Shown piece by piece: positions 1,914-54,983 of a stretch of DNA of 55,797 nucleotides. How positions within the stretch are numbered: the stretch's first letter is position 1; the number at the start of each line of letters is the position of its first letter. The notes beneath the pieces were generated by a model. The model was given only the letters and a program-made list of their open reading frames with translations, made no database searches and was not told where the DNA came from. The translations under genes and the position numbers were made by a program. Origin of the DNA: a virus (Duplodnaviria > Caudoviricetes); IMG/VR virus record IMGVR_UViG_3300018410_000011, positions 1 to 55,797 of that record, one strand, 5' to 3'.

Positions 1914-2294
1914 TTAATTATCGAAATATTCGTAATAATTTGTAAGAATATCATCAAAACTATATTTACATAATTCAATAACTTTATTCATCGTGTCTTC
2001 TGATAATGTATGATATGATTCTTTAATTTCATACCACATATTATCCATTTCAACAATAGATAATAATATATCATTATCTTCATTTGGTGTAATATCTAAT
2101 GGTTTAGATAAAATCATTTCATATATGTTTTTTAATTCTATACTAGTTTCATATCCATCAGAGAAAGATGAAATCATATTATGAATATGCATATCTAATA
2201 TTTTAATAAATTCTTCTTTATTTTTAGGTAATAATAAATCATTATCGATATTTTCATTTAAAAATTCTTTAAATTCATTTATAGTTGTTATCAT
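1914..2294 (-). CDS. MITTINEFK-leader protein (putative internal head protein)
   Basis: Starts MITTINEFKEFLNEN; acidic; TAATATATA upstream (2321..2329, minus strand). Confidence 0.75.
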   Translation of the reverse strand: MITTINEFKEFLNENIDNDLLLPKNKEEFIKILDMHIHNMISSFSDGYETSIELKNIYEMILSKPLDITPNEDNDILLSIVEMDNMWYEIKESYHTLSEDTMNKVIELCKYSFDDILTNYYEYFDN

Positions 2295-2320
2295 TTTTAA
2301 TATTTTAATATATTTTTAAT

Positions 2321-2329
2321 TATATATTA
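2321..2329 (-). promoter_or_regulatory. putative late promoter TAATATATA
   Basis: The same motif precedes the terminase-like, tail/baseplate and leader genes: 3250, 10093, 10714, 16567, 21764 (+) and 13125, 15860, 26930, 31036, 34737, 38840, 48040 (-). Confidence 0.6.
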
Positions 2330-2353
2330 AAATATTTTTTGTATATTTGTAAT

Positions 2354-2638
2354 ATGAAACATACTATAACAAATATCGACACATATTCTATAAGATCTAA
2401 AAAATCAGATACAATTGTATTTAAATTAAATAGCGATGATTTTAACTCTGATAAAATTAGAAAAATAACTAACTATATTAAAAGTTTAGGATATACTATT
2501 AAAAAAACTAGATCATATTCTAAAACTAAATTAATGTCATGGTGTAAATTTATTATTACAACAGAACAAAACAATATTTGTTGGTTTACAAATGATAAAT
2601 TAGCATTAGATATTGTAAATAAAGCGTTATTAAACTAA
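2354..2638 (+). CDS. hypothetical protein
   Basis: ATG at 2354 just after TATATTTG (2342); preferred over the TTG start at 2339. Confidence 0.6.
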   Translation: MKHTITNIDTYSIRSKKSDTIVFKLNSDDFNSDKIRKITNYIKSLGYTIKKTRSYSKTKLMSWCKFIITTEQNNICWFTNDKLALDIVNKALLN

Positions 2639-2639
2639 T

Positions 2640-3215
2640 ATGAATATAAAATTAGAACATATATTTATTAATCGTAGTCATGATTTAAAACAATTATTAA
2701 AAGATTGTTTTAAATTATCAACTTTTTGTTCAAGATTAGAAAAACAATCTTTATTATATCCAGATCGATATGATCCTGATAAATATAAAGGTGATGGTTT
2801 TGAATTATTTGTAGAAGCATTAATAAAATTATCACCAATAGATAATAGAATTGGAATAGCAAATTATCAAGTAGGTGATGAAACAAATGATAAAGGTATT
2901 GATGGTAGAGGACTAGGTATAGATGGTAAATTAGCTACTGTTCAAGTTAAATATAGATCAAATAATACGACATTATTAACAGCAAATAAAGATCATTTAT
3001 CAAATTTTGTTATGTCTTCTTTATTTGAAGGTGTTGATAAAGATTCAAATACAAATATGTTAATTATTACAACAGCCGAAAGTTTACACCACTTTACAGA
3101 TAATGAAATGTTTTTAAACAAAGTTAGGTGTATCGGATATAAACAATTAAGAGAATTAGTCGATAATAATATAAATTTCTGGAATAATTTTAGACAATTA
3201 TTAAATGTACAATAA
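2640..3215 (+). CDS. Mrr-like PD-(D/E)xK restriction endonuclease domain protein
   Basis: GDGFELFVE...DKGIDG...ATVQVKY, the E..D..QxK signature of Mrr-type nucleases. Confidence 0.7.
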   Translation: MNIKLEHIFINRSHDLKQLLKDCFKLSTFCSRLEKQSLLYPDRYDPDKYKGDGFELFVEALIKLSPIDNRIGIANYQVGDETNDKGIDGRGLGIDGKLATVQVKYRSNNTTLLTANKDHLSNFVMSSLFEGVDKDSNTNMLIITTAESLHHFTDNEMFLNKVRCIGYKQLRELVDNNINFWNNFRQLLNVQ

Positions 3216-3277
3216 ATGTACATTATTTCATAAACAGAAATCATTTTATTAATATATAAAATAAAAATGTACAATTT

Positions 3278-4110: not shown

Positions 4111-4875
4111 ATGATAACAGAAATTAGTACATATAGATTAGTTAAAGATTTAATTCTTTTAGAAAATAAATTAAATGAAGGATTAATAATGACTCATGAT
4201 ATACATGATAGTAAAAAAATTATTGAAAATTTTATTTCAGCTTATTTTTGGTATAATATAGAAATTGATATAAATAAATTTAAAATATTGTTATCTGATG
4301 GAAAATTCAATACCAATTCATATTTAGAATTTTTAATATTAATAAATAATTTAGGATATTTTATATCAAATATAAAAGCAAAAAATAAAAATAATATTAC
4401 AAATACAATTAATCCTAATGATTTTAAAAATAATTATTTGAATGATAAGTTTTTACAAAATATAATTGAATATAATTTTGTTATAGAACCAAAATTTGAT
4501 ACAACACATAAATTAAAAACAAATATTTTATATCATGTAACAGAAACAAGATATTTATATAATATATTAAAAAATTGGTTAGTTGCTAAATCAAAAAATA
4601 CATTATCTGAATATCCAGAAAGAATATATTTTGTTTATAATATAGAAGACGCTAATACATATATAAAATCTAAAAAGTTTTATTATTTAATGAATCAAAA
4701 AAATGCTAAACAACCAATTAAATCAAATTTTAAAGAAATTAAATATGTTATTTTAAAAATAGAATTACCAGAAAATAACAATTTAATATTGTATGAAGAC
4801 CCTAATTTTGTTGGTAAAGGAATATATACATATGAAAATATTTCACCAAAATTTATAAATATAGAAAACAAATAA
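4111..4875 (+). CDS. leader-variant protein with putative ADP-ribosyltransferase-like C-domain
   Basis: MITEISTY...KLNEGL; LYHVTE..I.KNWL..YPERIYF; paralogue of 32443..33216. Confidence 0.55.
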   Translation: MITEISTYRLVKDLILLENKLNEGLIMTHDIHDSKKIIENFISAYFWYNIEIDINKFKILLSDGKFNTNSYLEFLILINNLGYFISNIKAKNKNNITNTINPNDFKNNYLNDKFLQNIIEYNFVIEPKFDTTHKLKTNILYHVTETRYLYNILKNWLVAKSKNTLSEYPERIYFVYNIEDANTYIKSKKFYYLMNQKNAKQPIKSNFKEIKYVILKIELPENNNLILYEDPNFVGKGIYTYENISPKFINIENK

Positions 4876-4878
4876 AAT

Positions 4879-5253
4879 ATGACAATATATAAATTAATTG
4901 AAAATTTAATTATTTTAGAAAATAAATTAAATAATAATTTAATAGAAAAACAAGATATAAATTTAACATTAGACGCTATAATTAACACATTAGATTTTAA
5001 TGATTTTTGTAGGTGTGAAATAAAAGATAATAAAATATATACAACAATAGTAAATTATGATAATAATATAAATGTAGAAAAAATAATATATTTTCTATTA
5101 TCTATAACAAATTTAGCATATTGTGTATCACACCTAACAATATATAATAAACGTAATAAACCATATACATTAGACATTGATATTTTTAAAAATAATTATT
5201 TATCGGATTATGAATTAGAAAAAATAAATAAATTTGATTTAATAATTGAATAA
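4879..5253 (+). CDS. truncated paralogue of the N-terminal half of 4111..4875
   Basis: LIILENKLN, ITNLAYCVS and FKNNYL align with the upstream gene. Confidence 0.55.
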   Translation: MTIYKLIENLIILENKLNNNLIEKQDINLTLDAIINTLDFNDFCRCEIKDNKIYTTIVNYDNNINVEKIIYFLLSITNLAYCVSHLTIYNKRNKPYTLDIDIFKNNYLSDYELEKINKFDLIIE

Positions 5254-10107: not shown

Positions 10108-10645
10108 ATGATAACAACAATTAATGAATACAAATTAATTAATGAAAAATTTGTAAATTTATGGAATAAAGAAGATATGAAGTTATATATTGATGAAGTA
10201 TTTTCTTTAATGATTAAAGCATACGAATCTATTGGTGGTTTTTTAACAGCAAAATCGGCTGATGAATTATGTGAAAAAACTGATTTAATTAAAATAATAA
10301 AAAGAAATGGAAAGATTAGTGCTGTTTCTTGTTATAAAGTATCTTCTTTCGGAAGAAAAATTAATATGTGGTGCGACTAATGCTACAGAACAAGGTAAAA
10401 AAGATTTGTTATCTATTATAAAAGAAGATATAACTCAAATAAAAAGAAATTCTTATTCTGAAGTTAGTGGTAAATTAGAACACATATATTTAAAATATGG
10501 TGCGACTGTTGTACAAAATTATTTGGTATCTGATATAATAGGAAAAGATATAATTATTGATAAAACAGATGATTTTCATTATTATAGAGAAATTAAAGGA
10601 CAATTACATAGAAAATTATTAGTAGGAAATATTAATAAGTCATAA
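10108..10645 (+). CDS. MITTINEYK-leader protein, interrupted by a +1 frameshift near 10356-10360
   Basis: Removing one A from GGAAGAAAAATTA joins FGRK to LICGATN, giving one protein of about 178 aa. Confidence 0.65.
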
Positions 10646-10752: not shown

Positions 10753-10971
10753 ATGATAACAACTATTAATGAATTTAAACAATTTATGAATGAAAATAAA
10801 ATAACATTACAACAAGATAGCGCTGATAAAATAAAAATAACGTTAGATGAAAATATTATTTTAACACATGCAAAAAAAATGTTTAAAAAAATAAAAACAA
10901 TGAAAGATGTTTATGGTTTAGGTTCTATTGATTATAATAAATTAATTAAACATTTATCAAAAATTAATTAA
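10753..10971 (+). CDS. small MITTINEFK-leader protein
   Basis: MITTINEFKQFMNEN; TAATATATA at 10714. Confidence 0.75.
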   Translation: MITTINEFKQFMNENKITLQQDSADKIKITLDENIILTHAKKMFKKIKTMKDVYGLGSIDYNKLIKHLSKIN

Positions 10972-12853: not shown

Positions 12854-13099
12854 TTAATGATTTTCTATTTTTTGTAATTCTGTATAATAATTAGGCATTT
12901 CAGTTAAATGATCTAATGCAATTTCTTTAGCTAAATTTTTATCACTAGTGTGTTCTAATTCAACATTAATTCCTTTTTTAAGTTCATGTTGTATATTTGA
13001 AATAGTTGTATTGTGTTTACTGGCAATATCTTCTATAGATAAATTATCACCAATTCCACCTTTTAAATAATTTTTAAATTCGTTTATTGTTGTTATCAT
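12854..13099 (-). CDS. MITTINEFK-leader protein, DUF5661-like
   Basis: KGGIGD...ELKKGINVELEHT...AKEIALDHL.E.PNYYT.L. Confidence 0.75.
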   Translation of the reverse strand: MITTINEFKNYLKGGIGDNLSIEDIASKHNTTISNIQHELKKGINVELEHTSDKNLAKEIALDHLTEMPNYYTELQKIENH

Positions 13100-15063: not shown

Positions 15064-15840
15064 TTAATCTTGTCTTAATACATAACCTTCTTCGGAACAA
15101 AAATCTACCATTTTATTTAGTCCTGTTGAACCATAAGGTCCACCTGGATTAAAATTATAGAAAGATACAGTATTTGGTTGAAAAATTACATTAATAGATT
15201 CTTTTTCGTAATATATATATGATTCTAATTTAGTTTCTTTAATATCGTTATATGAATTTTCTTGGAATAAAAATAGTGCCCATCCTGGTTGTTCATTTTC
15301 ATTAGCCATAACATCAAATCCCATTCTAAAATATCCACGTTCGTGATTATTTAAATCTTTATTTTTAATTTCAGATGATAATATATTAATAGAATTTTGT
15401 ACATCATTATCATCAACCGTACTAAAATTTTCGTTATCTTCTTCAGGTGACCCAGAATCTCTATATATTTCACCAGGAATATATGCTAAAAAACACTCTT
15501 GACTATCATAACCTTTTTCTTCAATCCATCTACTGAATTGTTCGGCATTGTTGTAAATTTTATTTATAGAATCACCACCAGATGTTAATCTATCCATCCC
15601 TAAAGATTTAATCCAATTAGGTATTAATTCTCTATGGAATTTTGTATATGTATTATTTAGATTACCAGGACCTACATGCAATGATGTGAATATAGTACCA
15701 CTTTCAACTAAAGAAACTAATATATCTAAATCTTTTAAATCTGTTAAATTATTTAACACACCTTTTAAAATTTCATATGTTGAATCATTTTCTATATTTT
15801 CTCTAATATATTTTTTAAACTCGTTAATATTTGTTATCAT
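15064..15840 (-). CDS. MITNINEFK-leader protein
   Basis: MITNINEFKKYIREN; TAATATATA at 15860..15868 (minus strand). Confidence 0.75.
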   Translation of the reverse strand: MITNINEFKKYIRENIENDSTYEILKGVLNNLTDLKDLDILVSLVESGTIFTSLHVGPGNLNNTYTKFHRELIPNWIKSLGMDRLTSGGDSINKIYNNAEQFSRWIEEKGYDSQECFLAYIPGEIYRDSGSPEEDNENFSTVDDNDVQNSINILSSEIKNKDLNNHERGYFRMGFDVMANENEQPGWALFLFQENSYNDIKETKLESYIYYEKESINVIFQPNTVSFYNFNPGGPYGSTGLNKMVDFCSEEGYVLRQD

Positions 15841-16945: not shown

Positions 16946-17389
16946 ATGAATAAATTATTTAAAACAATTTTAGGTTTATTTAAAAAATCTAAACCGATAA
17001 AAAAATCATATAAAAAAATTATATTAAAAGATCAAATCCTTTATAATGTTGATGTAGAAAAAATTAATGTAAATTCACTTGAAAATTGTATTGATGATTT
17101 TAATAAAAAATTAGAAACTATTGGTGTTATGTATGGTGAATTAGATCATACATCAAAATTAGATATTACATTACATAATGTATCTCATAGTATTGAAAAA
17201 ATTAAATTAGATAATAATAACAATATAATAGCAAATGTAAAAACATTATCTACACCAAGTGGTAAAATATTACAAAATTTAATTAATGATGGGTTTAAAA
17301 TTAATTTTAAACCTAGTATGATTGGAATAAAAGATAAAAATAATATTTTTGAGGTAAAAGAAATACTTACATTTGATGTATGTATATAA
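16946..17389 (+). CDS. T4 gp21-like prohead core protease homologue
   Basis: YGELDH, LHNVSHSI, LSTPSGKIL, LTFD; the SSRG motif region has diverged to KPSMIG. Confidence 0.7.
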   Translation: MNKLFKTILGLFKKSKPIKKSYKKIILKDQILYNVDVEKINVNSLENCIDDFNKKLETIGVMYGELDHTSKLDITLHNVSHSIEKIKLDNNNNIIANVKTLSTPSGKILQNLINDGFKINFKPSMIGIKDKNNIFEVKEILTFDVCI

Positions 17390-18598: not shown

Positions 18599-19165
18599 AT
18601 GATAACTGAATTTAAAATATTTGAGAATAACAGAGCAGATTTATATCATGCAATAAAAACAAAATACGCTAATATAGCATTAGAAAAAAACGAATTAGAT
18701 ATTTATTCTTATCAACGATATTGGGCTAATGGAAAAAGATATAAAGATAATGAACCAGAATATAAAAATTCATTTTTTTATCGTGGTTTATCATTAACTA
18801 GAGATATAAATTATGCAAAAAATTGGGCTAGTGTTATTTTAGTTTTTGATACAAATAAATTAAAAGAAAAATATAAAATTGTTCCTTATAACTGGGGCTT
18901 TAGTATAGGTAATATAACTAATCAAAATATAAAAAAAGAAAAAGAAGAATTTTTAATTGTATCATATAATAAAAATCATTTAACAGATAAAGAATTTATT
19001 AATATGTATGGTAAATCTGGTGGATCTATAAAAAATCTTTCTTATTATTTAAAAGGTTTTTATATAAATAAATCAACATATAATATTTATACTGAAAATG
19101 ATACAAAAATATATGAACCATATGAAAAATTAAAAAAAAATAAATTATATTTAGGACTACTATGA
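18599..19165 (+). CDS. MITEFK-leader protein, putative ADP-ribosyltransferase-like fold
   Basis: MITEFKIFEN; LYHA...GLSLTRD...ILVFD...EKEEF. Confidence 0.55.
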   Translation: MITEFKIFENNRADLYHAIKTKYANIALEKNELDIYSYQRYWANGKRYKDNEPEYKNSFFYRGLSLTRDINYAKNWASVILVFDTNKLKEKYKIVPYNWGFSIGNITNQNIKKEKEEFLIVSYNKNHLTDKEFINMYGKSGGSIKNLSYYLKGFYINKSTYNIYTENDTKIYEPYEKLKKNKLYLGLL

Positions 19166-20526
19166 TAACTGAATTTAAAAAATATTTACTAAATGAATCC
19201 ACAAAATTTAAAGAAAGTGAATATGATTTAGTAATAGTGGATGTACAAGAAGGATTTAAGAAATTTTTTGGTGAAGAGTATTTATTAGCATTAGAAGAAT
19301 ATTGTGAAAATTTTACAAGAGTTTTTCAAATATTTGATACTAATAATACAAATCACAGTGATTATATATTTCCAAATCAAACATTAGAAATAGAAAAAAC
19401 GTATGGTGGTCAATTAGATGAAGAAGATATAGATTATTTATTTACTGAACCTATGCGAGATTATGTTAGATCTAAAATGAATAATTTACAAGAACGTGAC
19501 ATTTTCGAAACAATAAATGGAGATTATTATGTATATGTTGATGCCGCACATGAATGGTTTTTTTGTACAAAAGAAATGGCAGATTTATTTAAAAAATTTA
19601 AATCTGAAAATAGAAAAATTATGTTAGTTGGTGGTGCTGGTGGATCTAAAAAAAATCCTAAAGGTGAATGTTTACGAGATATTTATGTTACATTAAAAGC
19701 ATTTGGAGTTGATACAAGATATAATTTAGATTATGTTTATTCAGCAGATGGAAATATGTTTAAATCAAATATTAAAGGCGTTCCGTTAACAGACGAACAA
19801 CGAAATAAAGTAAAATCTACTAATGAAAATTACAATAATGATGATATAATTAATTTAAAAACTTTTGATTTTACTACTTTATTTAATACTATAAATAAAG
19901 AGTGTTTTAATTCTTCTTTATCTATAATTCCTATCAAATTTTCTACTTCTAAATCATACACTGCACAATTTGTTAGACCACGTTATCCTAAATATGATGG
20001 AACTGATAAAGAATATTTTGTTTTTTCTACTTTATTTGAAATGACATATAAAAAATTAAAAAATGTGTTAGCGCATGAAATGATACATTATTATTTGTAT
20101 GCTATTATGGATAGAGATAAATCACATCATGGATATTCTTTTCAAAATAAAATGAATTCTATTAATAATTTAAATTTAGGATATATCATAACATTAAAAG
20201 ATGATGAACCAAGTAATGTATCAGAAGAAAATTTAAATAAAAAGTTACAAAAAAAGAAATTTATAACATATAAAATAAAAGGACAAAACGGATATTCTTT
20301 AATAAACGAAATTACATTTATTAAAGATAAAGCTAATTTTTTAAGTAAAAGAACAATGTATGGTGTTACAGATATAAAAGTGTATGATACATCATCAGCA
20401 CATTATAAAGTATTATCTGGATCTACAACAAAAATAAAATTATCAATAATAAAACCACAATATCAATATTTAATAGACAATATTATTAATGATACAAAAA
20501 ATACAAAATTTTTATATAATTTATGA
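19162..20526 (+). CDS. MITEFK-leader protein: isochorismatase-like domain plus SprT-like zinc metalloprotease
   Basis: LVIVDVQ and LVGG...ECL; then LAHEMIHY...HHGYSF. Confidence 0.7.
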   Translation: MITEFKKYLLNESTKFKESEYDLVIVDVQEGFKKFFGEEYLLALEEYCENFTRVFQIFDTNNTNHSDYIFPNQTLEIEKTYGGQLDEEDIDYLFTEPMRDYVRSKMNNLQERDIFETINGDYYVYVDAAHEWFFCTKEMADLFKKFKSENRKIMLVGGAGGSKKNPKGECLRDIYVTLKAFGVDTRYNLDYVYSADGNMFKSNIKGVPLTDEQRNKVKSTNENYNNDDIINLKTFDFTTLFNTINKECFNSSLSIIPIKFSTSKSYTAQFVRPRYPKYDGTDKEYFVFSTLFEMTYKKLKNVLAHEMIHYYLYAIMDRDKSHHGYSFQNKMNSINNLNLGYIITLKDDEPSNVSEENLNKKLQKKKFITYKIKGQNGYSLINEITFIKDKANFLSKRTMYGVTDIKVYDTSSAHYKVLSGSTTKIKLSIIKPQYQYLIDNIINDTKNTKFLYNL

Positions 20527-21107
20527 TAACGACGATAAATGAATTTAAATTAAATATATCAGAATCCGTTCAAAAATATGATTTAGATGCTATATTAAAT
20601 ATAGCATTAACATATAAAGATGATGAGTATTATTTTTATAAATATGCTGATGAAACTAATGATGATATAGATAATATAGATGACGAAAGTGATGAATATA
20701 TATCATGGTACAAAGAAGAAATTGAATATATAATAGAAAATATATATTTTTTAATGAAAAGTAATTATTCTTCACCTGGTTTAGTATATAGAAAAATAAC
20801 TGTTAATGAAAATTGGTTTAATAATTTAAAATCTGGTGATAATTTAGGAATATATTGGACATATGATGAAAACTCAGCAGAATCACATTGGTCAAAAGAA
20901 GATATTGAAGTTTTATTAATAGCTGAAATTGATTCATCAAATATAGATTATAAAAATACATATTTAGCACATATAATACCTTATACTGGCGAAGACGAAA
21001 AAGAAATAAGATTATTAAAAAATACAGAAATTAATATTAAATCTATAATTATAAAAGATGAAGAACAAGATTTATCTAAATTTGAAAATACAATATTTAA
21101 AGCTTAA
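20523..21107 (+). CDS. MITTINEFK-leader protein, putative ADP-ribosyltransferase-like fold
   Basis: LVYRKI...LGIYWT...EDEKEIRL. Confidence 0.55.
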   Translation: MITTINEFKLNISESVQKYDLDAILNIALTYKDDEYYFYKYADETNDDIDNIDDESDEYISWYKEEIEYIIENIYFLMKSNYSSPGLVYRKITVNENWFNNLKSGDNLGIYWTYDENSAESHWSKEDIEVLLIAEIDSSNIDYKNTYLAHIIPYTGEDEKEIRLLKNTEINIKSIIIKDEEQDLSKFENTIFKA

Positions 21108-21748
21108 TGATAACAACGATAAATGAATTTATGATTAATGAAACATATTCTAAATTAGAATTTGAAAATATACATTTAGATTATCATAATCAACAAAACT
21201 GTTATAAAATGAATGCTAAATTAAATGGTGAAATTGTAGCATATTGTGATTATACAGAGTATAATGGTATTTATCAAATAAGTATGATAGAATCATTAGT
21301 TAAAGGCCAAGGATATGGTAAAGCTATAATGATGGAATTAGCTAGATTATATGGATATAAGAATATAGAACGAAATAATTTAACTCCTGATGGTCAAAAA
21401 TTACGTAATAAAGTTGATAATGAATTAGGTTTTGATTACACCGAGTATAAAAAATCATTAAATAAACATTTATCTAATGAAGAATCAATAGATAAAATAA
21501 GAATTAAATATCCTTTATGTGCTGATTTTATGTCTGAAATTATATTATTTGATTATAGTGACACATGGTTAAAATGGAAAAATAATAATAAAATAAAAAA
21601 TATAGAACAAGAATTACAAAATACAGATATAGATATAAATGATTTATCAGATATAACAGAATGGATAAAAAATTCAGCGACAAATAATAATTCTACTACA
21701 GAATCTGTTCCAGATTATATTTTAGAATATATTCAAAAATTATCATAA
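21107..21748 (+). CDS. MITTINEF-leader protein with GNAT-like domain
   Basis: ISMIESLVKGQGYGKAIM resembles the acetyl-CoA-binding motif A. Confidence 0.6.
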   Translation: MITTINEFMINETYSKLEFENIHLDYHNQQNCYKMNAKLNGEIVAYCDYTEYNGIYQISMIESLVKGQGYGKAIMMELARLYGYKNIERNNLTPDGQKLRNKVDNELGFDYTEYKKSLNKHLSNEESIDKIRIKYPLCADFMSEIILFDYSDTWLKWKNNNKIKNIEQELQNTDIDINDLSDITEWIKNSATNNNSTTESVPDYILEYIQKLS

Positions 21749-32442: not shown

Positions 32443-33216
32443 ATGATAACAGATATAAATTTATTTAGAATATATGAAAATTTTAAAGACTCAGAAAATA
32501 AATTAAATGAAGGATTAATTAAATCCTATCCTATAGATAAATCATTTGATATTTTAATTAATAAAACAGATCCTGTTTTAGATAATGTAAAAAGAGAATC
32601 TATGATACAAAATAATAAAATTATGTTATGTTGTAATAAACTAAATATTAGTGAATTTTTAGATTTATTAACTACAATAAATAACTTAGGTTATTTTATA
32701 TCAACTATTAAACCATATCAAAATACACCATTTAAATTTTTACAATTTAATGAGTTTAAAATAAAATTTTTTAATGAAAATAGTTTAAACAAATTCACAT
32801 CTTATGATATAATAATAGAAGCAAAGTTTGATATAATATACAAAACTAGTAGTAATAAATTATATCATGTAACTGAAGATATTTATGTTAATAAAATTTT
32901 TAAAAATGGTTTAATTGTTAAATCATATAATACATTATTAGATTATCCTGAAAGAATTTATTTAACAGATGATATACAACATAGTAAATTATTTATAGAT
33001 AAAAAGAAATTTTATTATAATAATTATCAAGATAAAAATATAGAAAGAAGAATAGGTAAAGATCAATATAGAAAAAAATCAGATAATGTTTATGTTATAC
33101 TTGAAATAGATAATTCTAATAAAGATATTATTTTGTATTTAGATCCAAATATGTCTAATGCATATTTTACTTTAAATACAATACCACCAAACAAAATTAA
33201 AAAATATGAAGAATAA
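32443..33216 (+). CDS. MITDINLF-leader protein with putative ADP-ribosyltransferase-like C-domain
   Basis: KLNEGL; LYHVTE..I.KNGL..YPERIYL..DPN; paralogue of 4111..4875. Confidence 0.6.
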   Translation: MITDINLFRIYENFKDSENKLNEGLIKSYPIDKSFDILINKTDPVLDNVKRESMIQNNKIMLCCNKLNISEFLDLLTTINNLGYFISTIKPYQNTPFKFLQFNEFKIKFFNENSLNKFTSYDIIIEAKFDIIYKTSSNKLYHVTEDIYVNKIFKNGLIVKSYNTLLDYPERIYLTDDIQHSKLFIDKKKFYYNNYQDKNIERRIGKDQYRKKSDNVYVILEIDNSNKDIILYLDPNMSNAYFTLNTIPPNKIKKYEE

Positions 33217-34524: not shown

Positions 34525-34722
34525 TTAAAAATTATCATCATCTTCATCAAATTCTTCATCTTTGTCTGAATTAGCTAACATGATAGTATGATAAGTCATA
34601 TTTTCAATAGCATCTTCTAATTCATCACAAGTTCTAAGATAATTTATAATTTCATCAAGAGTAAATGATGGATTATAATTCTCGTTAATATTTTGTTTAA
34701 AAGTATTTATATTTGTTATCAT
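34525..34722 (-). CDS. small MITNINTFK-leader protein
   Basis: Start at 34722, MITNINTFKQNINEN; TAATATATA at 34737..34745. Confidence 0.7.
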   Translation of the reverse strand: MITNINTFKQNINENYNPSFTLDEIINYLRTCDELEDAIENMTYHTIMLANSDKDEEFDEDDDNF

Positions 34723-34759: not shown

Positions 34760-35269
34760 TTATTTAATTTCATATTTATCTTTTAAATAATTATATTCTG
34801 GATTAGATTTTAAAATAAATAAATCACCATTAGTATTAGTTTTAATGTGATCTATATCATTTTCCAATTTTAATTTTTGTGCCATTTTAGGAACTTCATT
34901 TTTATTTAATGTTCTTCCAGGTGTTGTATACATATGACCAAATTCATGAATAAATTTTAATGTTATTTTATATCCTAATCCTTGATTTTGTAATGTATTT
35001 GATATATGTCGATGAGGATGATATAATTCATCATTAATAATTTGAATATCAAAAATTATTCCTTTATTTATTTCATTATCTGTTGGTAATTTTATACCTA
35101 AATGTATAATAGAATTATTATCATCACCTAATTCTATTAATTCAATATCTTTCCAATTAATATTTTTATAATCTTTATATTCTACTGTCTCATCAGGTAA
35201 TCTTAAACCAGGAAATAAATGAAATTCTTCATTTAATTTATTTTTAAATTCATTAATTGTCGTTATCAT
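34760..35269 (-). CDS. MITTINEFK-leader protein, GNAT-like
   Basis: KLNEE; TLQNQGLGYKI motif. Confidence 0.6.
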   Translation of the reverse strand: MITTINEFKNKLNEEFHLFPGLRLPDETVEYKDYKNINWKDIELIELGDDNNSIIHLGIKLPTDNEINKGIIFDIQIINDELYHPHRHISNTLQNQGLGYKITLKFIHEFGHMYTTPGRTLNKNEVPKMAQKLKLENDIDHIKTNTNGDLFILKSNPEYNYLKDKYEIK

Positions 35270-35892
35270 TCAATAGTTCTCTCTTTTATATTTAATATTC
35301 CTAAATAATCCATTTTTAAATCTTTTAATGACCATAACTCATTACTAATATCAGCGTCAGGTACGCAACTATAAAATTTCTTTTTATATTTTTCAGGTAA
35401 ATCAGATGGTCGTTTAACATTTAGTTTATTAAATATATTTAACTTAAGTGATTTTCTTATTTCTTTTATTTCATCTTTTTCTAATGATGAAATCCAAACA
35501 TTTAAATCAAATTTTACACCGTATTTATTATTAATTGAATTAGGACATTTTTGTTGTTGTTGTTTTATATTAATAATATCAATATCATCTGTCTTATCAT
35601 TATATAAATCAACACCATATACATAAAATAATCTAGTACTGTCATCCACACCCTTTAAACAATTATCGATAGAATTTGATAATGAAACTCTAGCTGTAAA
35701 ATCATCTTCTATAACTGAATTATTGTTTTGGTACGGGTTATTTGGTACTTTTGCTGTAAAAATAAAAGTACCATCATTATTTAATAATTTTTTATAAGAT
35801 AAATGAAAATATTTATACTCAGATTCTGCTTTATCTATAGTATAAATATTTTCATTTAATTTATTTCTAAATTCATTAATTGTCGTTATCAT
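35266..35892 (-). CDS. MITTINEFR-leader protein, possible ADP-ribosyltransferase-like fold
   Basis: YFHLS...EDDFTARVSLSNSI.NCL...VPDA..SNELW. Confidence 0.55.
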   Translation of the reverse strand: MITTINEFRNKLNENIYTIDKAESEYKYFHLSYKKLLNNDGTFIFTAKVPNNPYQNNNSVIEDDFTARVSLSNSIDNCLKGVDDSTRLFYVYGVDLYNDKTDDIDIINIKQQQQKCPNSINNKYGVKFDLNVWISSLEKDEIKEIRKSLKLNIFNKLNVKRPSDLPEKYKKKFYSCVPDADISNELWSLKDLKMDYLGILNIKERTIE

Positions 35893-36638
35893 TTAGCTGT
35901 AATAAATTTATTTTTATTTATATCATAAACTAACCAACCATCTTCACCTCTTCCAGGAATCCATTCACAATCTATTTCAATATTTATTAATTTTTCACAT
36001 TCAGAAAATTTATCAAATATATGATTTTTAATAAGATTTATTAAACCATTATCATCAAAAGGATTAGAATCACATAAATTAATTGCTATTTTATACTCTT
36101 CTTTATTAATATAAACATCACCATAATCTATTGATAATGTTTTAATACCATTTGAAAAATTTATTAAATTTTTCAAATTTATAATTTTATCAAATTTATT
36201 ATTAGATTCAATTGATTCTTTAATATATTCACCGTTTTTTAATACATCTATAAATTCTTGTTCGAAATTACCATTATTATCAAAAACAGTATATTCCGTT
36301 CTATCAATATAACATACTAATGGATAATTATCTTTAGAATTTATAGTAGTACCAAATTCATAATATTCATCATTTATTTTTATTGTATAATTAGAAATAA
36401 AAATAATTCCTAATAAATTATTTTGTTTTATATCAAATGGTTCTCCACTTTCTTCTATTACTATATTAATACCTTCTGGTAATTTATTTTCATGTATTAA
36501 TAAAGCTAATCTACCCATACATTTTAATAATTTAGATTCATTAAAAAAATCACGAGGAATTACTCTATGATAATTATAAATAGATTCATTTATTTTTTTT
36601 AATGTTATTAATTTATATTCATTAATCGTTGTTATCAT
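35889..36638 (-). CDS. MITTINEYK-leader protein
   Basis: KKINES; YHRVIPRDFFNESKLLKCMGRL domain; a second IKES site. Confidence 0.7.
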   Translation of the reverse strand: MITTINEYKLITLKKINESIYNYHRVIPRDFFNESKLLKCMGRLALLIHENKLPEGINIVIEESGEPFDIKQNNLLGIIFISNYTIKINDEYYEFGTTINSKDNYPLVCYIDRTEYTVFDNNGNFEQEFIDVLKNGEYIKESIESNNKFDKIINLKNLINFSNGIKTLSIDYGDVYINKEEYKIAINLCDSNPFDDNGLINLIKNHIFDKFSECEKLINIEIDCEWIPGRGEDGWLVYDINKNKFITAK

Positions 36639-36674: not shown

Positions 36675-37031
36675 TCATTTAAAATATCTAAAGCCTTGAA
36701 ATCCTTTCATTGTAATTGGATCAATTTTATAAAATTTACCGGTACGTTCAATAAATTTACCTTTCCAAATATTACCAGTAGTTGTACATTTAAACTCTTT
36801 TTCACTCAGTCCAGAGATAATATGGTAGCCTATAACATTACCATTATAACATATATAGCATTTACTTCCAATATTTGTTCTAGGGAAACCATTTGTCTTA
36901 AAATTTAAAACTTCACCATTTTCTGCTGCAATTAATTCTTTTTCATACTCATTCCATTTAATTGATTTAGGAATAGTAATTATAATGTCTTGACTCATAT
37001 ATTTTTTAAATTCGTTAATTGTTGTTATCAT
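36675..37031 (-). CDS. MITTINEFK-leader protein, possible PUA/ASCH-like fold
   Basis: Ends MKGFQGFRYF. Confidence 0.6.
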   Translation of the reverse strand: MITTINEFKKYMSQDIIITIPKSIKWNEYEKELIAAENGEVLNFKTNGFPRTNIGSKCYICYNGNVIGYHIISGLSEKEFKCTTTGNIWKGKFIERTGKFYKIDPITMKGFQGFRYFK

Positions 37032-38252: not shown

Positions 38253-38822
38253 TTAATTAGTAGAATTTGCATACCTTGTATTATATAATTCTTTTAATTC
38301 TAACCAAAATTTATAGTATTTAGATGGAATTTGTTCTGGTTTATAATGTCTACTATAACTTCTAAAAGTTGATCCAACAGAATAATTTGATCCTTTATAA
38401 TATTCCATACTTTCTGCTTTTGTATTAATATCAATAGCATATGTTATATATGAACCATCATAAAAATGTCCTTCTAAAATATCATAATCTGAATTATGTT
38501 TAGTATGTGAATTGAAATTTATTCTAACAAAGGAATTTCCAGCATTCTCATTAATATTAGTATCAACAAATTGTTGAATATCTGTAAAATTTTCATCTGC
38601 TTCAATATAATTTCCGTCTTCATCCTTTTTCATCAATTCAATAATATCGTGTCCTTTGATAAGGGCATAATTGACCCCATTATGTGTGTAAGCGATTATT
38701 CCATTTTCTAATCTAGCATCAGGAAATTTTGTGGCAACCATAGCCACATCAGTATTGTTAAAGTTAGAAGCAGTTCCTAATTGCTCATTCAATTTTTCAA
38801 ATATTTTAAAATTAGTAATCAT
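38253..38822 (-). CDS. MITNFK-leader protein
   Basis: Start at 38822, MITNFKIFEKLNEQ; TAATATATA at 38840..38848; internal INEN. Confidence 0.7.
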   Translation of the reverse strand: MITNFKIFEKLNEQLGTASNFNNTDVAMVATKFPDARLENGIIAYTHNGVNYALIKGHDIIELMKKDEDGNYIEADENFTDIQQFVDTNINENAGNSFVRINFNSHTKHNSDYDILEGHFYDGSYITYAIDINTKAESMEYYKGSNYSVGSTFRSYSRHYKPEQIPSKYYKFWLELKELYNTRYANSTN

Positions 38823-39524: not shown

Positions 39525-39529
39525 AATCT

Positions 39530-39571: not shown

Positions 39572-39576
39572 AGTTT

Positions 39577-41929: not shown

Positions 41930-41930
41930 T

Positions 41931-44122: not shown

Positions 44123-44156
44123 AAAAAAGAGACTCTAAAAAGTCTCTTTTTTTTTT
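44121..44156. terminator. bidirectional intrinsic terminator
   Basis: A-tract GAGACT-ctaaaa-AGTCTC T-tract between convergent genes. Confidence 0.8.
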
Positions 44157-44159
44157 ATT

Positions 44160-44759: not shown

Positions 44760-44818
44760 TTTTTTTTTTTAACAATTATATAAATTTAAATTGTTATATT
44801 TGTAAAAAATAAAAAAAA

Positions 44819-45632: not shown

Positions 45633-45633
45633 T

Positions 45634-46068: not shown

Positions 46069-46114
46069 AAATATTTAATTAATATTAAGTAATATAAAGA
46101 AAAAAGAAAAAAGT

Positions 46115-47173
46115 TTAATTAGATAATGGTAAATTAATTTTATTGCTTGATTCATAATCAATAATTTCTAAATCATTAAATTTATAATCGAAGATATTTG
46201 TATATCTTCTTCTATGTATTAATAATTTAGGTAATTTATATCTTTGATTATTAAATTGTTCTTTAATAGGATATATATGATTATTATAAATGTGTGTATC
46301 ACCTAAATTAGATATTAATTCATCCGGTACCATATTTACATTTAATGCTAATAATTGTAATAATAACGCATAACTTGCTATATTAAATGGTAAACCTAAT
46401 CCAACGTCAACAGAACGCATATTAAATAATAAAGAAATTGATCTAGTTGGTAAATTTAATACATCACAATCATTATGTGTAAAAATATTTGGTGTATTTT
46501 TTGGTACTAAATTTATTCTTTCTTCTAGTGATAATTTTCTAGTAAATACTTGAAATGAATAATGACATGGTGGTAAAACAGCATTTTTTACATTTGTAGG
46601 ATTCCATGCCGTTACTAACATTCTTCTTGAATCTGGATTATTTAATAAAGTATTAACTAAATCTTGAATTTGATTGATATTATCATTCCAATTTACCCAT
46701 TCAGACCCATATACTTTATTCAATTCACCCCATACTTCATAAAATCCTGGATGATTTTCATCATCTTTTATAGCTTCTATAAATTCTTCTCTTGTATACA
46801 TTCTTGTATTATCTTTATTGGTAGTATCTAAAGATTTAACTAAATTAACAACAGAATATTTTATAGCTTCACTATTATTTTTATTATATTCAGTTACATA
46901 ATTTTTATAACAATCTCCTACCCAAATATATACATTATTATCTACTAAATATTTAATATTTGTATCACCTTTCAAAAACCACAATAATTCATGAAAAATA
47001 CCATTATAAAACATTTTTTTACTTGTCAATAATGGAAAACCATCATTCATATTGTGTCTTAACGTTCTACCAAAAACTTTTCTAGTTCCTGTTCCAGTTC
47101 TATCATCACTTTCATATCCATTAGAAATAACATCTTCTACTAAATCTAAATAATCTTTATCTAATTTATTCAT
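46115..47173 (-). CDS. thyA: thymidylate synthase
   Basis: DRTGTGT, ELLWFLKG, PDSRR, LPPCH, RSVDVGLGLPFN, DTHIY. Confidence 0.95.
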   Translation of the reverse strand: MNKLDKDYLDLVEDVISNGYESDDRTGTGTRKVFGRTLRHNMNDGFPLLTSKKMFYNGIFHELLWFLKGDTNIKYLVDNNVYIWVGDCYKNYVTEYNKNNSEAIKYSVVNLVKSLDTTNKDNTRMYTREEFIEAIKDDENHPGFYEVWGELNKVYGSEWVNWNDNINQIQDLVNTLLNNPDSRRMLVTAWNPTNVKNAVLPPCHYSFQVFTRKLSLEERINLVPKNTPNIFTHNDCDVLNLPTRSISLLFNMRSVDVGLGLPFNIASYALLLQLLALNVNMVPDELISNLGDTHIYNNHIYPIKEQFNNQRYKLPKLLIHRRRYTNIFDYKFNDLEIIDYESSNKINLPLSN

Positions 47174-47655: not shown

Positions 47656-48009
47656 TTAGTGGTTTTCCATATATTTATTTAATAAATCAGATGATTCATT
47701 TACATTACTATTATAAGTTGGACGATACCAATTATCTATATTTTCTGGGTCAATATTATTTCTATCTAAAAATTTACGAGTTACTAATTTAACTGTTGTA
47801 GAATTTATTTTTTCTTCTGGAAAATTATCTTTTAAATCGTTATAAAAATAAAAATTCTTATCTGAATTTAAATCATCTGTTTCAATATCAGAATAATTCC
47901 ACCCATCCATTATTTGATTAGTAGATTTAAATATAGCAAAATGAGTATAGTTTTTATCTGCCATAACATTTTCATATATTTTTTTAAACAATTTAATATC
48001 CGTTATCAT
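47656..48009 (-). CDS. MITDIKLFK-leader protein
   Basis: MITDIKLFKKIYEN; late motif at 48040..48048. Confidence 0.7.
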   Translation of the reverse strand: MITDIKLFKKIYENVMADKNYTHFAIFKSTNQIMDGWNYSDIETDDLNSDKNFYFYNDLKDNFPEEKINSTTVKLVTRKFLDRNNIDPENIDNWYRPTYNSNVNESSDLLNKYMENH

Positions 48010-52152: not shown

Positions 52153-52512
52153 ATGTATAATAAATTATTAAAAATAATAGAATATAAAGGTTATTTAATA
52201 ATATCTTATTTAGATATTAATTCTCCTAAAATATCATTGGTTGGTACTGGTACATTAATATCTGGTTTTAATTCAAATGATATTTTAATTTCAAATGAAG
52301 CTCTTAAATTATTAAAAAACAATTTAAAAATTAATAAACTTATTAATGATCCTGTATTAGAAATAATATCAAAAGATAGATTATGGGTGAATATGATTGG
52401 TAATATAATAATACCTCCTAATGAAATAATAAATACATATACAATACCATATCATACTATATGTGAAAATACTATAGATGAAAAAATAAAAATAGAATTA
52501 GATAAAATATGA
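52153..52512 (+). CDS. hypothetical protein
   Basis: 119-aa ORF; TAAAC-N18-TATAA at 52105. Confidence 0.6.
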   Translation: MYNKLLKIIEYKGYLIISYLDINSPKISLVGTGTLISGFNSNDILISNEALKLLKNNLKINKLINDPVLEIISKDRLWVNMIGNIIIPPNEIINTYTIPYHTICENTIDEKIKIELDKI

Positions 52513-52745
52513 CAAATCCATTATTAGACTTAAGCATAATATTATTATACATAATAATAATTTTTAAAAATGAAATTATTTATCATATAATAAATAGTAC
52601 ATCATATATGTTTTATATTTTAGGTAATATATTTAACAATTTGACAAATGTATATTACTTAAATAATATATCAATTACATTTACATATTTAAGTGTAATA
52701 TCATATTATATACAATATTCTTTATTAACTATTTTAAATATATAA
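52509..52745 (+). CDS. hypothetical hydrophobic protein
   Basis: 78-aa ORF with ATGA overlap. Confidence 0.4.
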   Translation: MTNPLLDLSIILLYIIIIFKNEIIYHIINSTSYMFYILGNIFNNLTNVYYLNNISITFTYLSVISYYIQYSLLTILNI

Positions 52746-52748
52746 AAT

Positions 52749-53648
52749 ATGATATATAGACATAAATTATTATATAATTCAAATAGAGAATTATGTTTTC
52801 TAAGAAAACCAAAATATAATATAACAAAAAAGATTAATGAAGATTCTAGTTTTGTTCCTAGGTTTACTATAAAGAATGAAGAAATATTTTCTAATTTTCC
52901 TACTAACACACCAATGAAACTATCACAGGAGTTGTTAGAAACCGCTATAACGCATGGTATGATACTTCAAATAGATTATAAAGGTGAAGAAGATGATAAT
53001 TTTTCAGGACATGAGAGAACCATTTATCCTATGGTTTATGGAAAAACTAAAGAAAATAAAGGAGTTTTAAGAGGTTATCATTTAAAAGGTTGGTCAGTAT
53101 CAAATGGTGGAAATATAGATAAAGAATGGAGAATGTTTAGAACTGATAGAATTTTAAATGTTGTATTTACAGGCTCATTTTTTAGATTAGCACCTAATGG
53201 ATATAATGAAAGTGGGGATAAAGGTATATCTAAAATTATATATCAAGCTGATTTTAATACTATAAGAAATAATCAATCTAAATTATTACAAAAAAATGAA
53301 ATAGATGAACAAGATAGAGTTATATTATCTAAAATTCATAATATTGAAACCAAAGATTTAAATTATAATTTAAAAATATTTAAACCTTGGGAAGGTAATG
53401 TAATACCAAAAAAAGATGCAAAAAATATTAGAATAACATTTGCTAAACCTATTGTAGGTACAGGACAATGGGTAGCTATAATAGGTACAAGTATTGTACC
53501 TGGTAATATATTTAAATTAAAAATAAATGATAAAATAGAAGGATCTTATAAATCTGTTAAGTATTTAATGGCAAATGAATTAGATTCATTAAATACTATA
53601 GAACAACAATCAGAATTTAAATCTTTATTATTTTTAAAAGGAAATTAA
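52749..53648 (+). CDS. WYL-like domain protein
   Basis: IDYKG...ERTIYP.VYG...LRGY...WRMFRTDRI. Confidence 0.6.
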   Translation: MIYRHKLLYNSNRELCFLRKPKYNITKKINEDSSFVPRFTIKNEEIFSNFPTNTPMKLSQELLETAITHGMILQIDYKGEEDDNFSGHERTIYPMVYGKTKENKGVLRGYHLKGWSVSNGGNIDKEWRMFRTDRILNVVFTGSFFRLAPNGYNESGDKGISKIIYQADFNTIRNNQSKLLQKNEIDEQDRVILSKIHNIETKDLNYNLKIFKPWEGNVIPKKDAKNIRITFAKPIVGTGQWVAIIGTSIVPGNIFKLKINDKIEGSYKSVKYLMANELDSLNTIEQQSEFKSLLFLKGN

Positions 53649-53657
53649 AAAAAAAAT

Positions 53658-53996
53658 ATGATATTTAATTATAATTTTTATAAAACACCAGAACATAGAT
53701 GGTATGCTGATATTCCAGAATGGACTGGAACAATAGATGATTTAGAAATGGTAAGTGGGGCCGATACAATGTTAGATATTTTATCACAAGGTGAAAATAA
53801 AATAAATATTTCATTTTCAGATAATCCGTTACATAATTCTATTAAATTATCTAAAATAAATGATACACCGGAAATAGGTGGAGCTGAATATTTATTTACA
53901 GAGTATTTAGGTATAGAATATAATATTAAAATTTGGTTATGTGATGTAACTAAATGGGTTTTTGATTATTTACCTGAAAAGATATGGATTATTTAA
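53658..53996 (+). CDS. conserved hypothetical protein (DUF6717-like)
   Basis: WYADIPEW.G...LEMVSGADTMLD...WLCDVT. Confidence 0.6.
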   Translation: MIFNYNFYKTPEHRWYADIPEWTGTIDDLEMVSGADTMLDILSQGENKINISFSDNPLHNSIKLSKINDTPEIGGAEYLFTEYLGIEYNIKIWLCDVTKWVFDYLPEKIWII

Positions 53997-54360
53997 ATAA
54001 AACTGATACGTTACTATTTCCTAAATTAATTTCTATTACACCTATATCTTGTATAGTTCCTTTCATTATATAAACACGTACATTATATTGATTAGGTGAT
54101 AATTCTGGAATATATAAAGATATTTGTTCTTCAATTTCTGCTTGAATAGAAGACGCAGGAAAACTTGTTTTCCATAAATATGTTGGAATATCAGCACCGA
54201 AATTTATATCACTTAAAACTTCACCTTTATTAGTAAAAAGAATCATATATAATTTAGAAATAATACCATCTAATTTAGTTATAGTTTCTATTTCTAATTC
54301 ATTATAATAAGGATCTTTTATACCTCTTATATAAATATCTTTATAATCTTCACTAGCCAT
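53989..54360 (-). CDS. baseplate wedge protein, gp25-like
   Basis: ILFTNKGEVLSDINFGADI..YLW....IEEQISLYIPE. Confidence 0.75.
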   Translation of the reverse strand: MASEDYKDIYIRGIKDPYYNELEIETITKLDGIISKLYMILFTNKGEVLSDINFGADIPTYLWKTSFPASSIQAEIEEQISLYIPELSPNQYNVRVYIMKGTIQDIGVIEINLGNSNVSVLFK

Positions 54361-54983
54361 TATACTGTTACTTTATATGTTTTATTTTTATTATAAAATT
54401 CTTTACTAAACATACATGTAATTAATTTAAATATAATTATATCTGAATTTTTTTTAGCTATTAAACCACCAACAACATTTAAATCATTACTAGTGTCATA
54501 AATCCAAACTGGATCTCCAGCATTTAAAGTATTATTAATTAATAAATCTACAATTTGTTCTGTAGCTTTTTCGACAGCGGATTTAATATCTGAATTTTTT
54601 ATAAATTCAGATGATCTACCTTGTCTTTCCATTGAATGATATGAATGTTTTAAATCTAATTCTATAGTTATTTCTTTAGTAATTTTACCTATATTAGAAA
54701 CAGCATCAAAATCATTTCTTTCTAAAATTTTACCATTAATTATATCTAAAATTTTTAAATCTTTCTTAACTCTTTTTATTTCATTTGGAACTTTAGAATA
54801 TTGTTTTTTAATTAAAAAAGTTAATTGTAATTGTTCATCTTTATCAAAATCAGATTCTATCCAATTCATATAAGCCCTTTTAACTTTAGTATCTATAGTT
54901 TTGAATTCTTTACTATCTACAACATATTTAGATATTTGTTGTTTATATGTATCTATTTTAAATTCATTAATCGTTGTTATCAT
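54360..54983 (-). CDS. MITTINEFK-leader protein
   Basis: Leader present; C-domain HSYHSMERQGR...LITCM. Confidence 0.7.
   Translation of the reverse strand: MITTINEFKIDTYKQQISKYVVDSKEFKTIDTKVKRAYMNWIESDFDKDEQLQLTFLIKKQYSKVPNEIKRVKKDLKILDIINGKILERNDFDAVSNIGKITKEITIELDLKHSYHSMERQGRSSEFIKNSDIKSAVEKATEQIVDLLINNTLNAGDPVWIYDTSNDLNVVGGLIAKKNSDIIIFKLITCMFSKEFYNKNKTYKVTV

Follow-up and report, generated by a model that had tools for sequence, protein, structure and literature searches.

A shared N-terminal leader on unrelated proteins of an uncultured huge phage as a candidate T4-like capsid-targeting tag

Bacteriophage T4 directs proteins to its head by means of a tag, and it is already known that T-even phages employ this tag for a variety of internal proteins; a paper by Mullaney and Black from 1996 is said to be the source for the T4 capsid targeting system. 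For the T4 internal protein IPIII, the first ten residues suffice for incorporation into the head, with residues 4 and 7 serving targeting and residues 8 and 10 processing (PMC9026906). It may be this tag that allows T4-like phages to package proteins of various kinds (PMC9026906; also PMC3012670, PMC5694885). Here we describe a short leader of comparable kind in the viral record IMGVR_UViG_3300018410_000011, the whole of which, 55,797 bases, was analysed and is called the window below. All 19 leader-bearing starts in the window follow the consensus M-I-T-(T/N/D/E)-(I)-(N)-x-(F/Y)-(K/R), and the proteins behind them are, with one exception, unrelated to each other.

The window has 20-21% G+C and amounts to about 14% of the genome by CheckV estimate; its source is a very A+T-rich huge phage, kin of T4 and of the >600-kb 'megaphages'. 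About 77 genes are encoded, 19 of them open with the leader and one more is cut by the right end, i.e. about one gene in four. We consider it rather probable that the leader is a T4-like tag that would load a large set of cargo proteins into the head and would then be clipped off. The M-I-T-x-(I/L)-x-x-(F/Y)-(K/R) half would be the counterpart of the portion that serves targeting in the T4 capsid targeting sequence (CTS) and would bind the scaffolding core during prohead building. The (I/L/M)-N-E triplet at residues 12-15, followed by N or S, would be the cut site of a gp21-type prohead protease whose gene lies beyond the window, and cleavage there would release the mature protein within the head. 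The cargo, mostly small unrelated enzymes (predicted ADP-ribosyltransferase-superfamily proteins, a SprT-like peptidase, an acetyltransferase), would be ejected with the DNA and act on the host ahead of all phage gene expression. The DNA coding for the leader may also be a site of unequal recombination, leading to gain and loss of cassettes between strains. We infer core binding, cleavage, presence in the virion, ejection and time of expression from sequence.

The leader, its second half and the protease of the clade

The leader set was drawn from six records, the window and five related IMG/VR contigs (G001-G005), fetched whole and spanning 21-31% G+C; G004 is a complete 391-kb genome with terminal repeats. 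The same leader occurred in all five contigs. A loose regular expression returned 72 leader proteins (window 19, G004 21, G002 15, G005 9, G001 5, G003 3), a total that includes two G004 matches, 9153 and 166941, which fit the leader loosely and were excluded from the leader alignment.

Most leaders carry a hydrophobic-x-E site, as the initial annotation had stated. A [LIVMFY]-x-E triplet ended at residues 12-15 in 13 of the 19 window leaders compared with 4 of 58 other window proteins, and three more leaders had a site at residue 9 or 18; over the six records, the counts at residues 12-15 were 52/72 leaders and 73/721 other proteins. A hydrophobic-x-E triplet was also frequent at residues 5-8, as the core INE (12/19 window leaders, 3/58 others), and the I-N-E triplet at residues 5-7 was found in 51/72 leaders as against 58/721 others over the six records. 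By residues 20-23 the excess was gone (4/72 leaders, 87/721 others). At the 52 sites ending at residues 12-15, P3 was I, L or M without exception, P2 was N in 30 (8% of 3,791 background sites) and P1' was N or S in 33 (15% of the background).

In the T4 record (NC_000866), IPII and IPIII start with MKTYQEFIAE, IPI with MKTFKEF and gp24 with MAKINELLRE. The leader shares with the T4 CTS the M-x-T start, I5 and F8 three apart, E-F, and then a hydrophobic-x-E formed by L12 and E14, with the same i/i+3 and i/i+2 spacing. It is longer, at about 14 residues compared with the 10 of T4, the additions being one residue near the start and three that separate the two halves, and its P2 is mostly Asn. The resemblance is a likeness of motifs, the peptide being too short for a homology statistic.

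The head module was seen in G004, where a gp23-type capsid gene (64.9 bits) adjoins the gene of a 739-residue protease-scaffold fusion (158045-160264). The first ~165 residues of the fusion protein are a gp21-type protease (26.5 bits, just below the Pfam cut-off) whose GE(F/L)xHP and VSSR motifs fall on His85 and Ser140 of T4 gp21 in an alignment. A full HMMER search with this domain gave 1,741 representatives at E<=1e-3, mostly of 570-860 residues. In an alignment of G004 with 51 of the best 150 representatives (n=52), the protease domain was directly followed by [VILM] (51/52), N (48/52), E (51/52), S (43/52), [L/F/Y] and G. The G004 fusion protein contains seven hydrophobic-N-E sites, one of them at residue 21, compared with 1.03 expected (P 1e-4), and the G004 capsid and portal-like proteins contain one each. 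In the orthologue of LR756504, a 636-kb megaphage, VNES occurs near the N-terminus, LNES at the junction and LNES twice more. Self-cleavage at the motif recognised in substrates is described for related proteases (PMC5694885), and from this analogy together with the junction motif we infer that hydrophobic-N-E/S (a slash marks the putative cut) is probably the cleavage motif of the clade protease. The leader end, (I/L/M)-N-E-(N/S) at residues 12-15, matches the [VILM]-N-E-S motif of the protease-scaffold junction, and this agreement between two sequence motifs is the strongest new argument for the capsid-targeting reading. A complex prediction of the G004 protease domain (1-163) with a leader peptide (1-40) scored 0.00, which says nothing either way. 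In G004 and its 51 aligned relatives, the region to which the protease is fused is scaffold-like, rich in coiled coils and 400-700 residues long.

The initial annotation had pointed to a gp21-like gene at 16946 in the window itself. Its product is indeed a member of the protease fold family, as it matches PHROG 207 ('head maturation protease', E 3.7e-12) and shares 30% identity with the protease domain of G004; it had no match to Peptidase_S77 (PF03420) and only chance-level matches in a sequence search against PDB chains. Aligned to the 52 family sequences, it keeps G73, E74, H77, H90 and D154; the invariant Ser132 is replaced by Lys and Arg134 by Ser, residues G34, F36, N43, R47 and Y49 are lost, and the protein ends before the DPGF motif. 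The gene at 16946 thus encodes a diverged paralogue which, without Ser132, Arg134 and five further invariants, is not credible as a working gp21.

The initial annotation had also considered that the motif might be conserved as DNA only. The codons indicated a signal at the level of the peptide. Synonymous variation in codons 3-6 of the window leaders was at least as great as genome-wide usage predicts, with ACG at codon 3 in 4/16 leaders (4% genome-wide) and AAC in 3/14 Asn codons at codon 6 (8% genome-wide). In the leaders of relatives, Ser4 is written as TCN and as AGT, and Arg9 as CGN and as AGA. Conservation of the peptide across 21-31% G+C despite these synonymous and six-fold codon switches therefore argues for selection on the peptide. 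Six-frame translations gave 57 matches to the leader core, 55 directly after M, one after MK and one internal, so that 56 of the 57 are N-terminal. A position matrix reached at least 6 bits in 75 of 4,237 M-starts, and none of 20,199 internal control 9-mers exceeded 6.9 bits; the matrix had been trained on 67 of the scoring members, so only its control is informative.

The DNA pattern of the leader was matched once in 185,579 bacterial and archaeal genomes, in a 16-kb contig of a metagenome-assembled genome, and in 33 stretches of metagenome contigs; judged by these matches, the leader appears specific to one phage clade. The exact MITTINEF-type DNA pattern had 0 matches in LR756504. Direct reading of N-termini, the only way in which it was seen, revealed there (LR756504.1, loci L001, L066-L072) a related but distinct leader, M(x)(x)IKKF(N/E)EF...NE, which follows one pattern at six N-termini; three of the six proteins are adjacent.

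Leader genes and their cargo

A scan of both strands for ATG-AT(T/C/A)-ACN found 24 places. Nineteen were open frames of 65-454 residues, and the remaining five (11103, 14886, 50535, 51382, 53081), with frames of 4-16 residues, were due to chance. The 19 are exactly the starts that had been named before, to which a 20th, truncated by the window edge, could be added. Three genes (18599, 19162, 38822) carry a shorter form of the leader with two residues fewer. The leader genes and two associated features are as follows:

1914..2294, minus strand: leader gene, 126 residues, MITTINEFKEFLNE/N; no family
4111..4875, plus strand: leader gene, 254 residues, long leader MITEISTYRL...ENKLNE/G; predicted Tpt1/KptA-like fold; paralogue of 32443
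4879..5253, plus strand: possible degenerate member, 124 residues (MTIYKLIENLIILENKLNNN...); ENKLN stretch common to 4111 and 32443; outside the 19
10108..10380, plus strand: leader gene, 90 residues, MITTINEYKLINE/K
10753..10971, plus strand: leader gene, 72 residues, MITTINEFKQFMNE/N; leader-bearing orthologue in G002
12854..13099, minus strand: leader gene, 81 residues; DUF5661 at residues 23-80; without site at residues 12-15
15064..15840, minus strand: leader gene, 258 residues, MITNINEFKKYIRE/N; no family; poor Atlas model
16946..17389, plus strand: diverged gp21-type prohead protease paralogue, 147 residues
18599..19165, plus strand: leader gene, 188 residues, short leader MITEFKIFE/N; first of a four-gene overlapping array
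19162..20526, plus strand: leader gene, 454 residues, MITEFKKYLLNE/S; SprT-like metallopeptidase domain at 240-344
20523..21107, plus strand: leader gene, 194 residues, MITTINEFKLNISE/S
21107..21748, plus strand: leader gene, 213 residues, MITTINEFMINE/T; weak GNAT match
32443..33216, plus strand: leader gene, 257 residues, MITDINLFRIYE/N ... LNE/G; paralogue of 4111; absent in the wastewater strain contig
34525..34722, minus strand: leader gene, 65 residues, MITNINTFKQNINE/N
34760..35269, minus strand: leader gene, 169 residues, MITTINEFKNKLNE/E
35266..35892, minus strand: leader gene, 208 residues, MITTINEFRNKLNE/N; body missing in one strain contig
35889..36638, minus strand: leader gene, 249 residues, MITTINEYKLITLKKINE/S
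36675..37031, minus strand: leader gene, 118 residues, MITTINEFKKYMSQD; without site at 12-15; body missing in one strain contig
38253..38822, minus strand: leader gene, 189 residues, short leader MITNFKIFEKLNE/Q
47656..48009, minus strand: leader gene, 117 residues, MITDIKLFKKIYE/N
54360..54983, minus strand: leader gene, 207 residues, MITTINEFKIDTYKQ; without site at 12-15; N-terminus identical in G003; relatives in G002 and G005
55014..55796, minus strand: 20th leader gene, C-terminal 260 residues, start outside the window

The last frame is 100% identical to residues 210-469 of a 469-residue G003 protein that starts with MITKINEFKIYFINE; the G003 contig extends the phage beyond the right end of the window. 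This right-hand protein (G003 L061:3488-4894) and the one at the other end of the window (2-943) both contain tandem repeats of a unit of about 20 residues (…LSESFIREFQDKVNW.IS…).

When residues 1-18 were removed, the 72 leader proteins fell into 56 families at BLASTP E<=1e-3, 45 of them singletons. Within the window, 4111 and 32443 were the only ones linked directly (41% identity, E 1.3e-35), in agreement with the earlier observation that the proteins are unrelated after the leader save for one paralogue pair; 18599 and 19162 share one cluster only via fused relatives. Pfam detected DUF5661 in 13099, a SprT-like domain in 19162 (42.3 bits, cut-off 25.6) and, below the cut-off, GNAT in 21107 (18.9 versus 20.7 bits). 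The scan over all records took 71 of the 72 proteins, one that spans a locus boundary being excluded, and gave three ART-PolyVal (ART, ADP-ribosyltransferase) and two GNAT matches, one each for LPD11, SMODS-associated NUDIX, SprT-like, DUF5661, YunG-like and DUF3990, and two further matches that are probably chance. In relatives, one ART-PolyVal match reached 42.4 bits (cut-off 31.2), LPD11 112.5 bits and Sa_NUDIX an E of 3.4e-28. In a G001 protein, the ART-PolyVal domain begins at residue 16, immediately after the leader. Polyvalent proteins, for which packaging and injection along with the phage DNA are predicted, are described with ART, metallopeptidase, GNAT, NUDIX and LPD11 domains in them or next to them, and T4 Alt is the prototype of a packaged ADP-ribosyltransferase (Iyer et al. 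2017, PMC5512222).

The leader is an add-on, as judged from leaderless and fused homologues. Some homologues of 19162 have the canonical leader or a variant of it, and two (P0007 and P0008) are leaderless and start directly at the domain. In a further homologue of 19162, P0003, the domain of 18599 occurs internally, fused behind another domain and without leader. A leader-bearing protein of 697 residues (P0006) combines SprT-like and ART-PolyVal domains, with (I/L)NES linkers between. In P0007 and P0008, moreover, two domains are separated by a stretch that resembles a leader (…KKIKTFNQFLLEG…), as would result from fusion of a leader-bearing gene to the end of another gene.

For the paralogues 4111 and 32443, which had no Pfam match, the model structure gave an indication of the fold. 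Across 38 aligned relatives of 4111, the leader is long and closes with LNE-GLI, which hardly varies. The AlphaFold2 model of 4111 (mean predicted local confidence, pLDDT, 84.3) consists of a helix at residues 2-22, a loop of lower confidence at LNE/G and two globular lobes. A Foldseek search of the PDB ranked Tpt1/KptA structures, which are NAD-dependent 2'-phosphotransferases, in all of the best 11 places (E from 9e-4, probability 0.94-1.0, template-modelling (TM) score 0.39-0.45 by target), the top match having E 9e-4, probability 1.0 and TM 0.44 by target. This predicted fold agrees with sub-threshold ADP-ribosyltransferase leads from the Atlas, and the model would place 4111 and 32443 in a Tpt1/KptA-like fold of the ADP-ribosyltransferase superfamily. 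The 15064-15840 protein had no usable Atlas match, and the array at 18599-21748 had no blastn match among GenBank phages.

Strain variation, upstream element and genome surroundings

Contigs from other samples were compared with the window over 31000-39000, and three joints with long flanks were found. In one strain, a wastewater contig, 28 other bases replace the gene at 32443-33216. In one strain, about codon 14 of gene 35892 is joined to about codon 14 of gene 35269, with loss of one gene body, and in one the leader of gene 37031 is joined to the body of gene 36638. The joints come from assembled contigs, and the two inside repeated leaders could be assembly artefacts; the 32443 joint is not at a repeat. 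Taken together, the joints point to cargo genes that come and go as cassettes, for which the leader-coding DNA would be the crossover site. Over the same 31000-39000 interval, the phage or close strains were seen in salt-marsh and wastewater metagenomes from several studies.

An A+T-rich element, TAATATATA(A), lies 0-60 nt, often 3-30 nt, before a number of starts:

2294, 3278, 10108, 10753, 13099, 15840, 16580, 21794, 23026, 26924, 31031, 34722, 38822, 48009: starts with TAATATATA(A) upstream

WAATATATA as such is not enriched in the window (36 found, 48 expected in shuffles), and it is the position that stands out: 13 of the 19 window copies of TAATATATA lie in sense <=60 nt upstream of a start, a zone of about 4% of strand positions, and in G004 51 of 60 copies of AATATATAA lie in sense <=60 nt before a start. 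We consider the element to be probably a phage promoter, and its spacing to the ATG is often so short that the transcripts would probably be nearly leaderless. The motif precedes eight leader genes and also gp32 (23026), a terminase fragment (3278) and genes for 490- and 1360-residue proteins. The initial annotation had taken it for a mark that leader genes share with structural genes; its position before starts, eight leader genes among them, was borne out, and the motif is not specific to structural genes, since it occurs before NrdA and gp32 too. It was rejected as a late promoter, its count being below the shuffle mean and NrdA and gp32 being preceded by it as well as head and baseplate genes. 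Late expression of the leader genes is therefore not established by the motif.

For the T4-type single-strand-binding protein gp32 (23026), the nearest relatives in GenBank belong to uncultured phages with genomes of 634-735 kb, LR756504 among them at 46% identity. The window further encodes a helicase, a DNA methylase, a PD-(D/E)XK nuclease, an endonuclease V-like glycosylase, a dCMP deaminase, two thymidylate-synthase-family genes, sugar-nucleotide genes and a tail-fibre-like gene. A gene for 270 residues at 3278-4090 matches only the N-terminal ATPase part of the T4-type large terminase (phrog_5989, E 1.1e-22), positions 128-200 of Terminase_6N being matched at the very end of the protein. 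Terminase_6C was not found anywhere in the window, and leader gene 4111 and its degenerate relative 4879 follow directly; the large terminase may be split or interrupted here. A cluster at 37044-47173 comprises a nucleoside 2-deoxyribosyltransferase-like gene, FMN reductase, dCMP deaminase, a SIS-domain protein, short (39577-40284) and full (46115-47173) thymidylate-synthase-family genes and a 523-residue nucleotidyltransferase/kinase-like protein, which suggests DNA base modification.

Weight of the reading and comparison with known systems

A number of observations weigh against loading into the head. The phage is uncultured and known from sequence alone, and no phage studied comes near to devoting a quarter of its genes to head cargo. 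A site at residues 12-15 is lacking in six of the 19 window leaders; among these, it lies at residue 18 in 36638, at residues 18 and 23 in 4111 and at residue 9 in 18599, while in 13099, 37031 and 54983 the sole site is the core INE at residue 7. Hydrophobic-N-E is not depleted inside the mature cargo (23 seen, 18.1 expected). The median pI of the mature parts is 5.3, compared with 6.4 for other proteins, unlike the basic T4 internal proteins. None of ten window leader proteins matched a PHROG family, and Pfam matched 3/19. Neither a major capsid gene nor a Peptidase_S77 match was found in the window, which covers about 14% of the genome; the head module was seen only in relatives, and the only protease relative in the window, 16946, is without the invariant serine. 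The AATATATAA element precedes the protease-scaffold gene and a baseplate wedge gene, and likewise NrdA and the window gp32. Codon 2 is ATA in 16/16 canonical window leaders, compared with 48% of Ile codons genome-wide, and together with the deletions that break at leaders this points to some additional constraint on, or use of, the nucleotide sequence.

Part of this evidence would fit an address or regulatory tag for a purpose outside the head, such as recognition by a phage chaperone or by 16946, timed degradation or delivery to a different assembly or compartment, with a likeness to T4 that is convergent or only partly relevant. Leader genes occur on both strands, interspersed with genes of DNA metabolism, and a protease paralogue of doubtful catalytic activity lies in their midst; as head cargo, one gene in four is much, and the acidic to neutral mature parts are unlike T4 internal proteins. 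We nevertheless regard such a tag as unlikely: the site at residues 12-15 matches both the junction and the internal sites of a head protein, the protease-scaffold fusion, the core is like the T4 CTS in both the type and the spacing of its residues, such domains as can be recognised are known from packaged or injected effectors, and the T4 record places internal-protein genes apart from head genes as well.

The codon 2 bias, the strain deletions with breakpoints in neighbouring leaders, the promoter-like motif often found just upstream and the lack of any visible Shine-Dalgarno-like sequence upstream of the leader starts would instead suit a cassette that acts mainly as DNA, in recombination or in translation initiation without Shine-Dalgarno in an A+T-rich genome, the peptide having no role. 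This seems to us quite improbable in view of the synonymous variation at codons 3 and 6, the use of both serine boxes and both arginine boxes at fixed positions in relatives, and the persistence of the peptide over the range of G+C. Internal genes of the overlapping arrays keep the leader without the promoter motif, the second motif follows residue class and has its counterpart in a protein motif of the protease family, and the distant LR756504 has a related peptide in spite of lacking the DNA pattern. We give hardly any credence to a single fast-evolving multigene family that diverged beyond recognition except at its N-terminus. Only the N-terminus aligns and one paralogue pair exists, as such a family would have it, but the domains and folds are different and unrelated (ART-PolyVal, SprT-like, GNAT, NUDIX, LPD11, DUF5661, Tpt1-like), lengths run from 65 to 454 residues, and one cargo domain has leaderless homologues.

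The capsid-targeting reading that had been put forward in the initial annotation is thus retained in part. In its favour stand the peptide-level signal, the likeness to the T4 CTS, the match to the site of the clade protease, the effector domains and the T4-type head module of G004; the gene at 16946 is related to gp21 but not credible as a working protease, the upstream motif is not specific to structural genes, and packaging, cleavage and injection stay at the level of prediction. A wider version, a clade-wide 'injectome', in which every leader protein would be loaded, trimmed after hydrophobic-N-E and delivered with the DNA, the leader DNA would be the crossover site and 16946 a leader-binding adaptor that does not cut, is conceivable but in our view doubtful. 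Under it, such proteins would make up roughly a quarter of the genes in the sampled region and perhaps many dozens per genome, as single-domain versions of the polyvalent-protein toolkit.

Among the papers listed, we found no published description of such a leader in huge phages; supplementary tables (virion proteomes, logos) might hold some. The available part of an overview of jumbo-phage genomics (PMC7824862) does not mention internal proteins, propeptides or a prohead protease. New here are the match between leader end and protease junction, the polyvalent-protein domains, the leaderless and fused homologues and the strain-level loss of cassettes. If the capsid-targeting reading is true, a leader scan of the sequence would be enough to list the proteins that uncultured huge phages package and inject, opening a route to candidate host-takeover and anti-defence enzymes in mostly unannotated genomes, and the head-loading mechanism of T4 would scale from four proteins to dozens. 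The match of leader end and junction provides a simple, testable rule for protease specificity. The leader with its cognate protease and scaffold could also serve as a laboratory protein-packaging system, as the T4 tag does.

In T4-type phages, mobile regulatory cassettes mediate gene shuffling. The leader DNA resembles them as a short conserved sequence at gene starts that seems to be a recombination site for gain and loss of accessory genes, and differs in that the conserved stretch is coding and under selection as a peptide. Propeptides of head and ejection proteins in phiKZ, 201phi2-1 and SPN3US are cut by gp175 or gp245 after (S/A)-x-E (PMC5694885, PMC10052503). In these giant phages, too, a gp21-related protease cleaves after Glu, and there are many internal head proteins and multiple cut sites; their protease cuts itself at its own motif, and their genomes carry a diverged protease paralogue comparable to 16946 (PMC5694885). 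Their propeptides are, however, mostly 111-254 residues long, with no shared portable peptide (PMC5694885, PMC10052503), whereas here one short consensus peptide stands on dozens of proteins and the putative site is hydrophobic-N-E, not A/S-x-E. With the polyvalent proteins, the leader cargo shares the vocabulary of ART-PolyVal, LPD11, metallopeptidase, GNAT and NUDIX domains and the predicted role, delivery with the DNA for early action (Iyer et al. 2017, PMC5512222); the domains are mostly single here, each gene having its own leader, and not strung in one giant polypeptide.

The closest described system remains that of T4. There as here, a short N-terminal peptide is common to otherwise unrelated proteins, a gp23-type capsid and a gp21-type protease are encoded (here in relatives), the cargo includes ADP-ribosyltransferase-superfamily enzymes (predicted here; Alt in T4), and the cargo genes vary between strains, as do the internal-protein genes of T-even phages (PMC9026906). 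In contrast to T4, the mature cargo is mostly acidic or neutral and not basic, and the clade protease is fused to a long scaffold-like region. The main difference is one of number: 19-20 leader genes, known here from genes alone, lie within 56 kb, about one gene in four, compared with four in T4.

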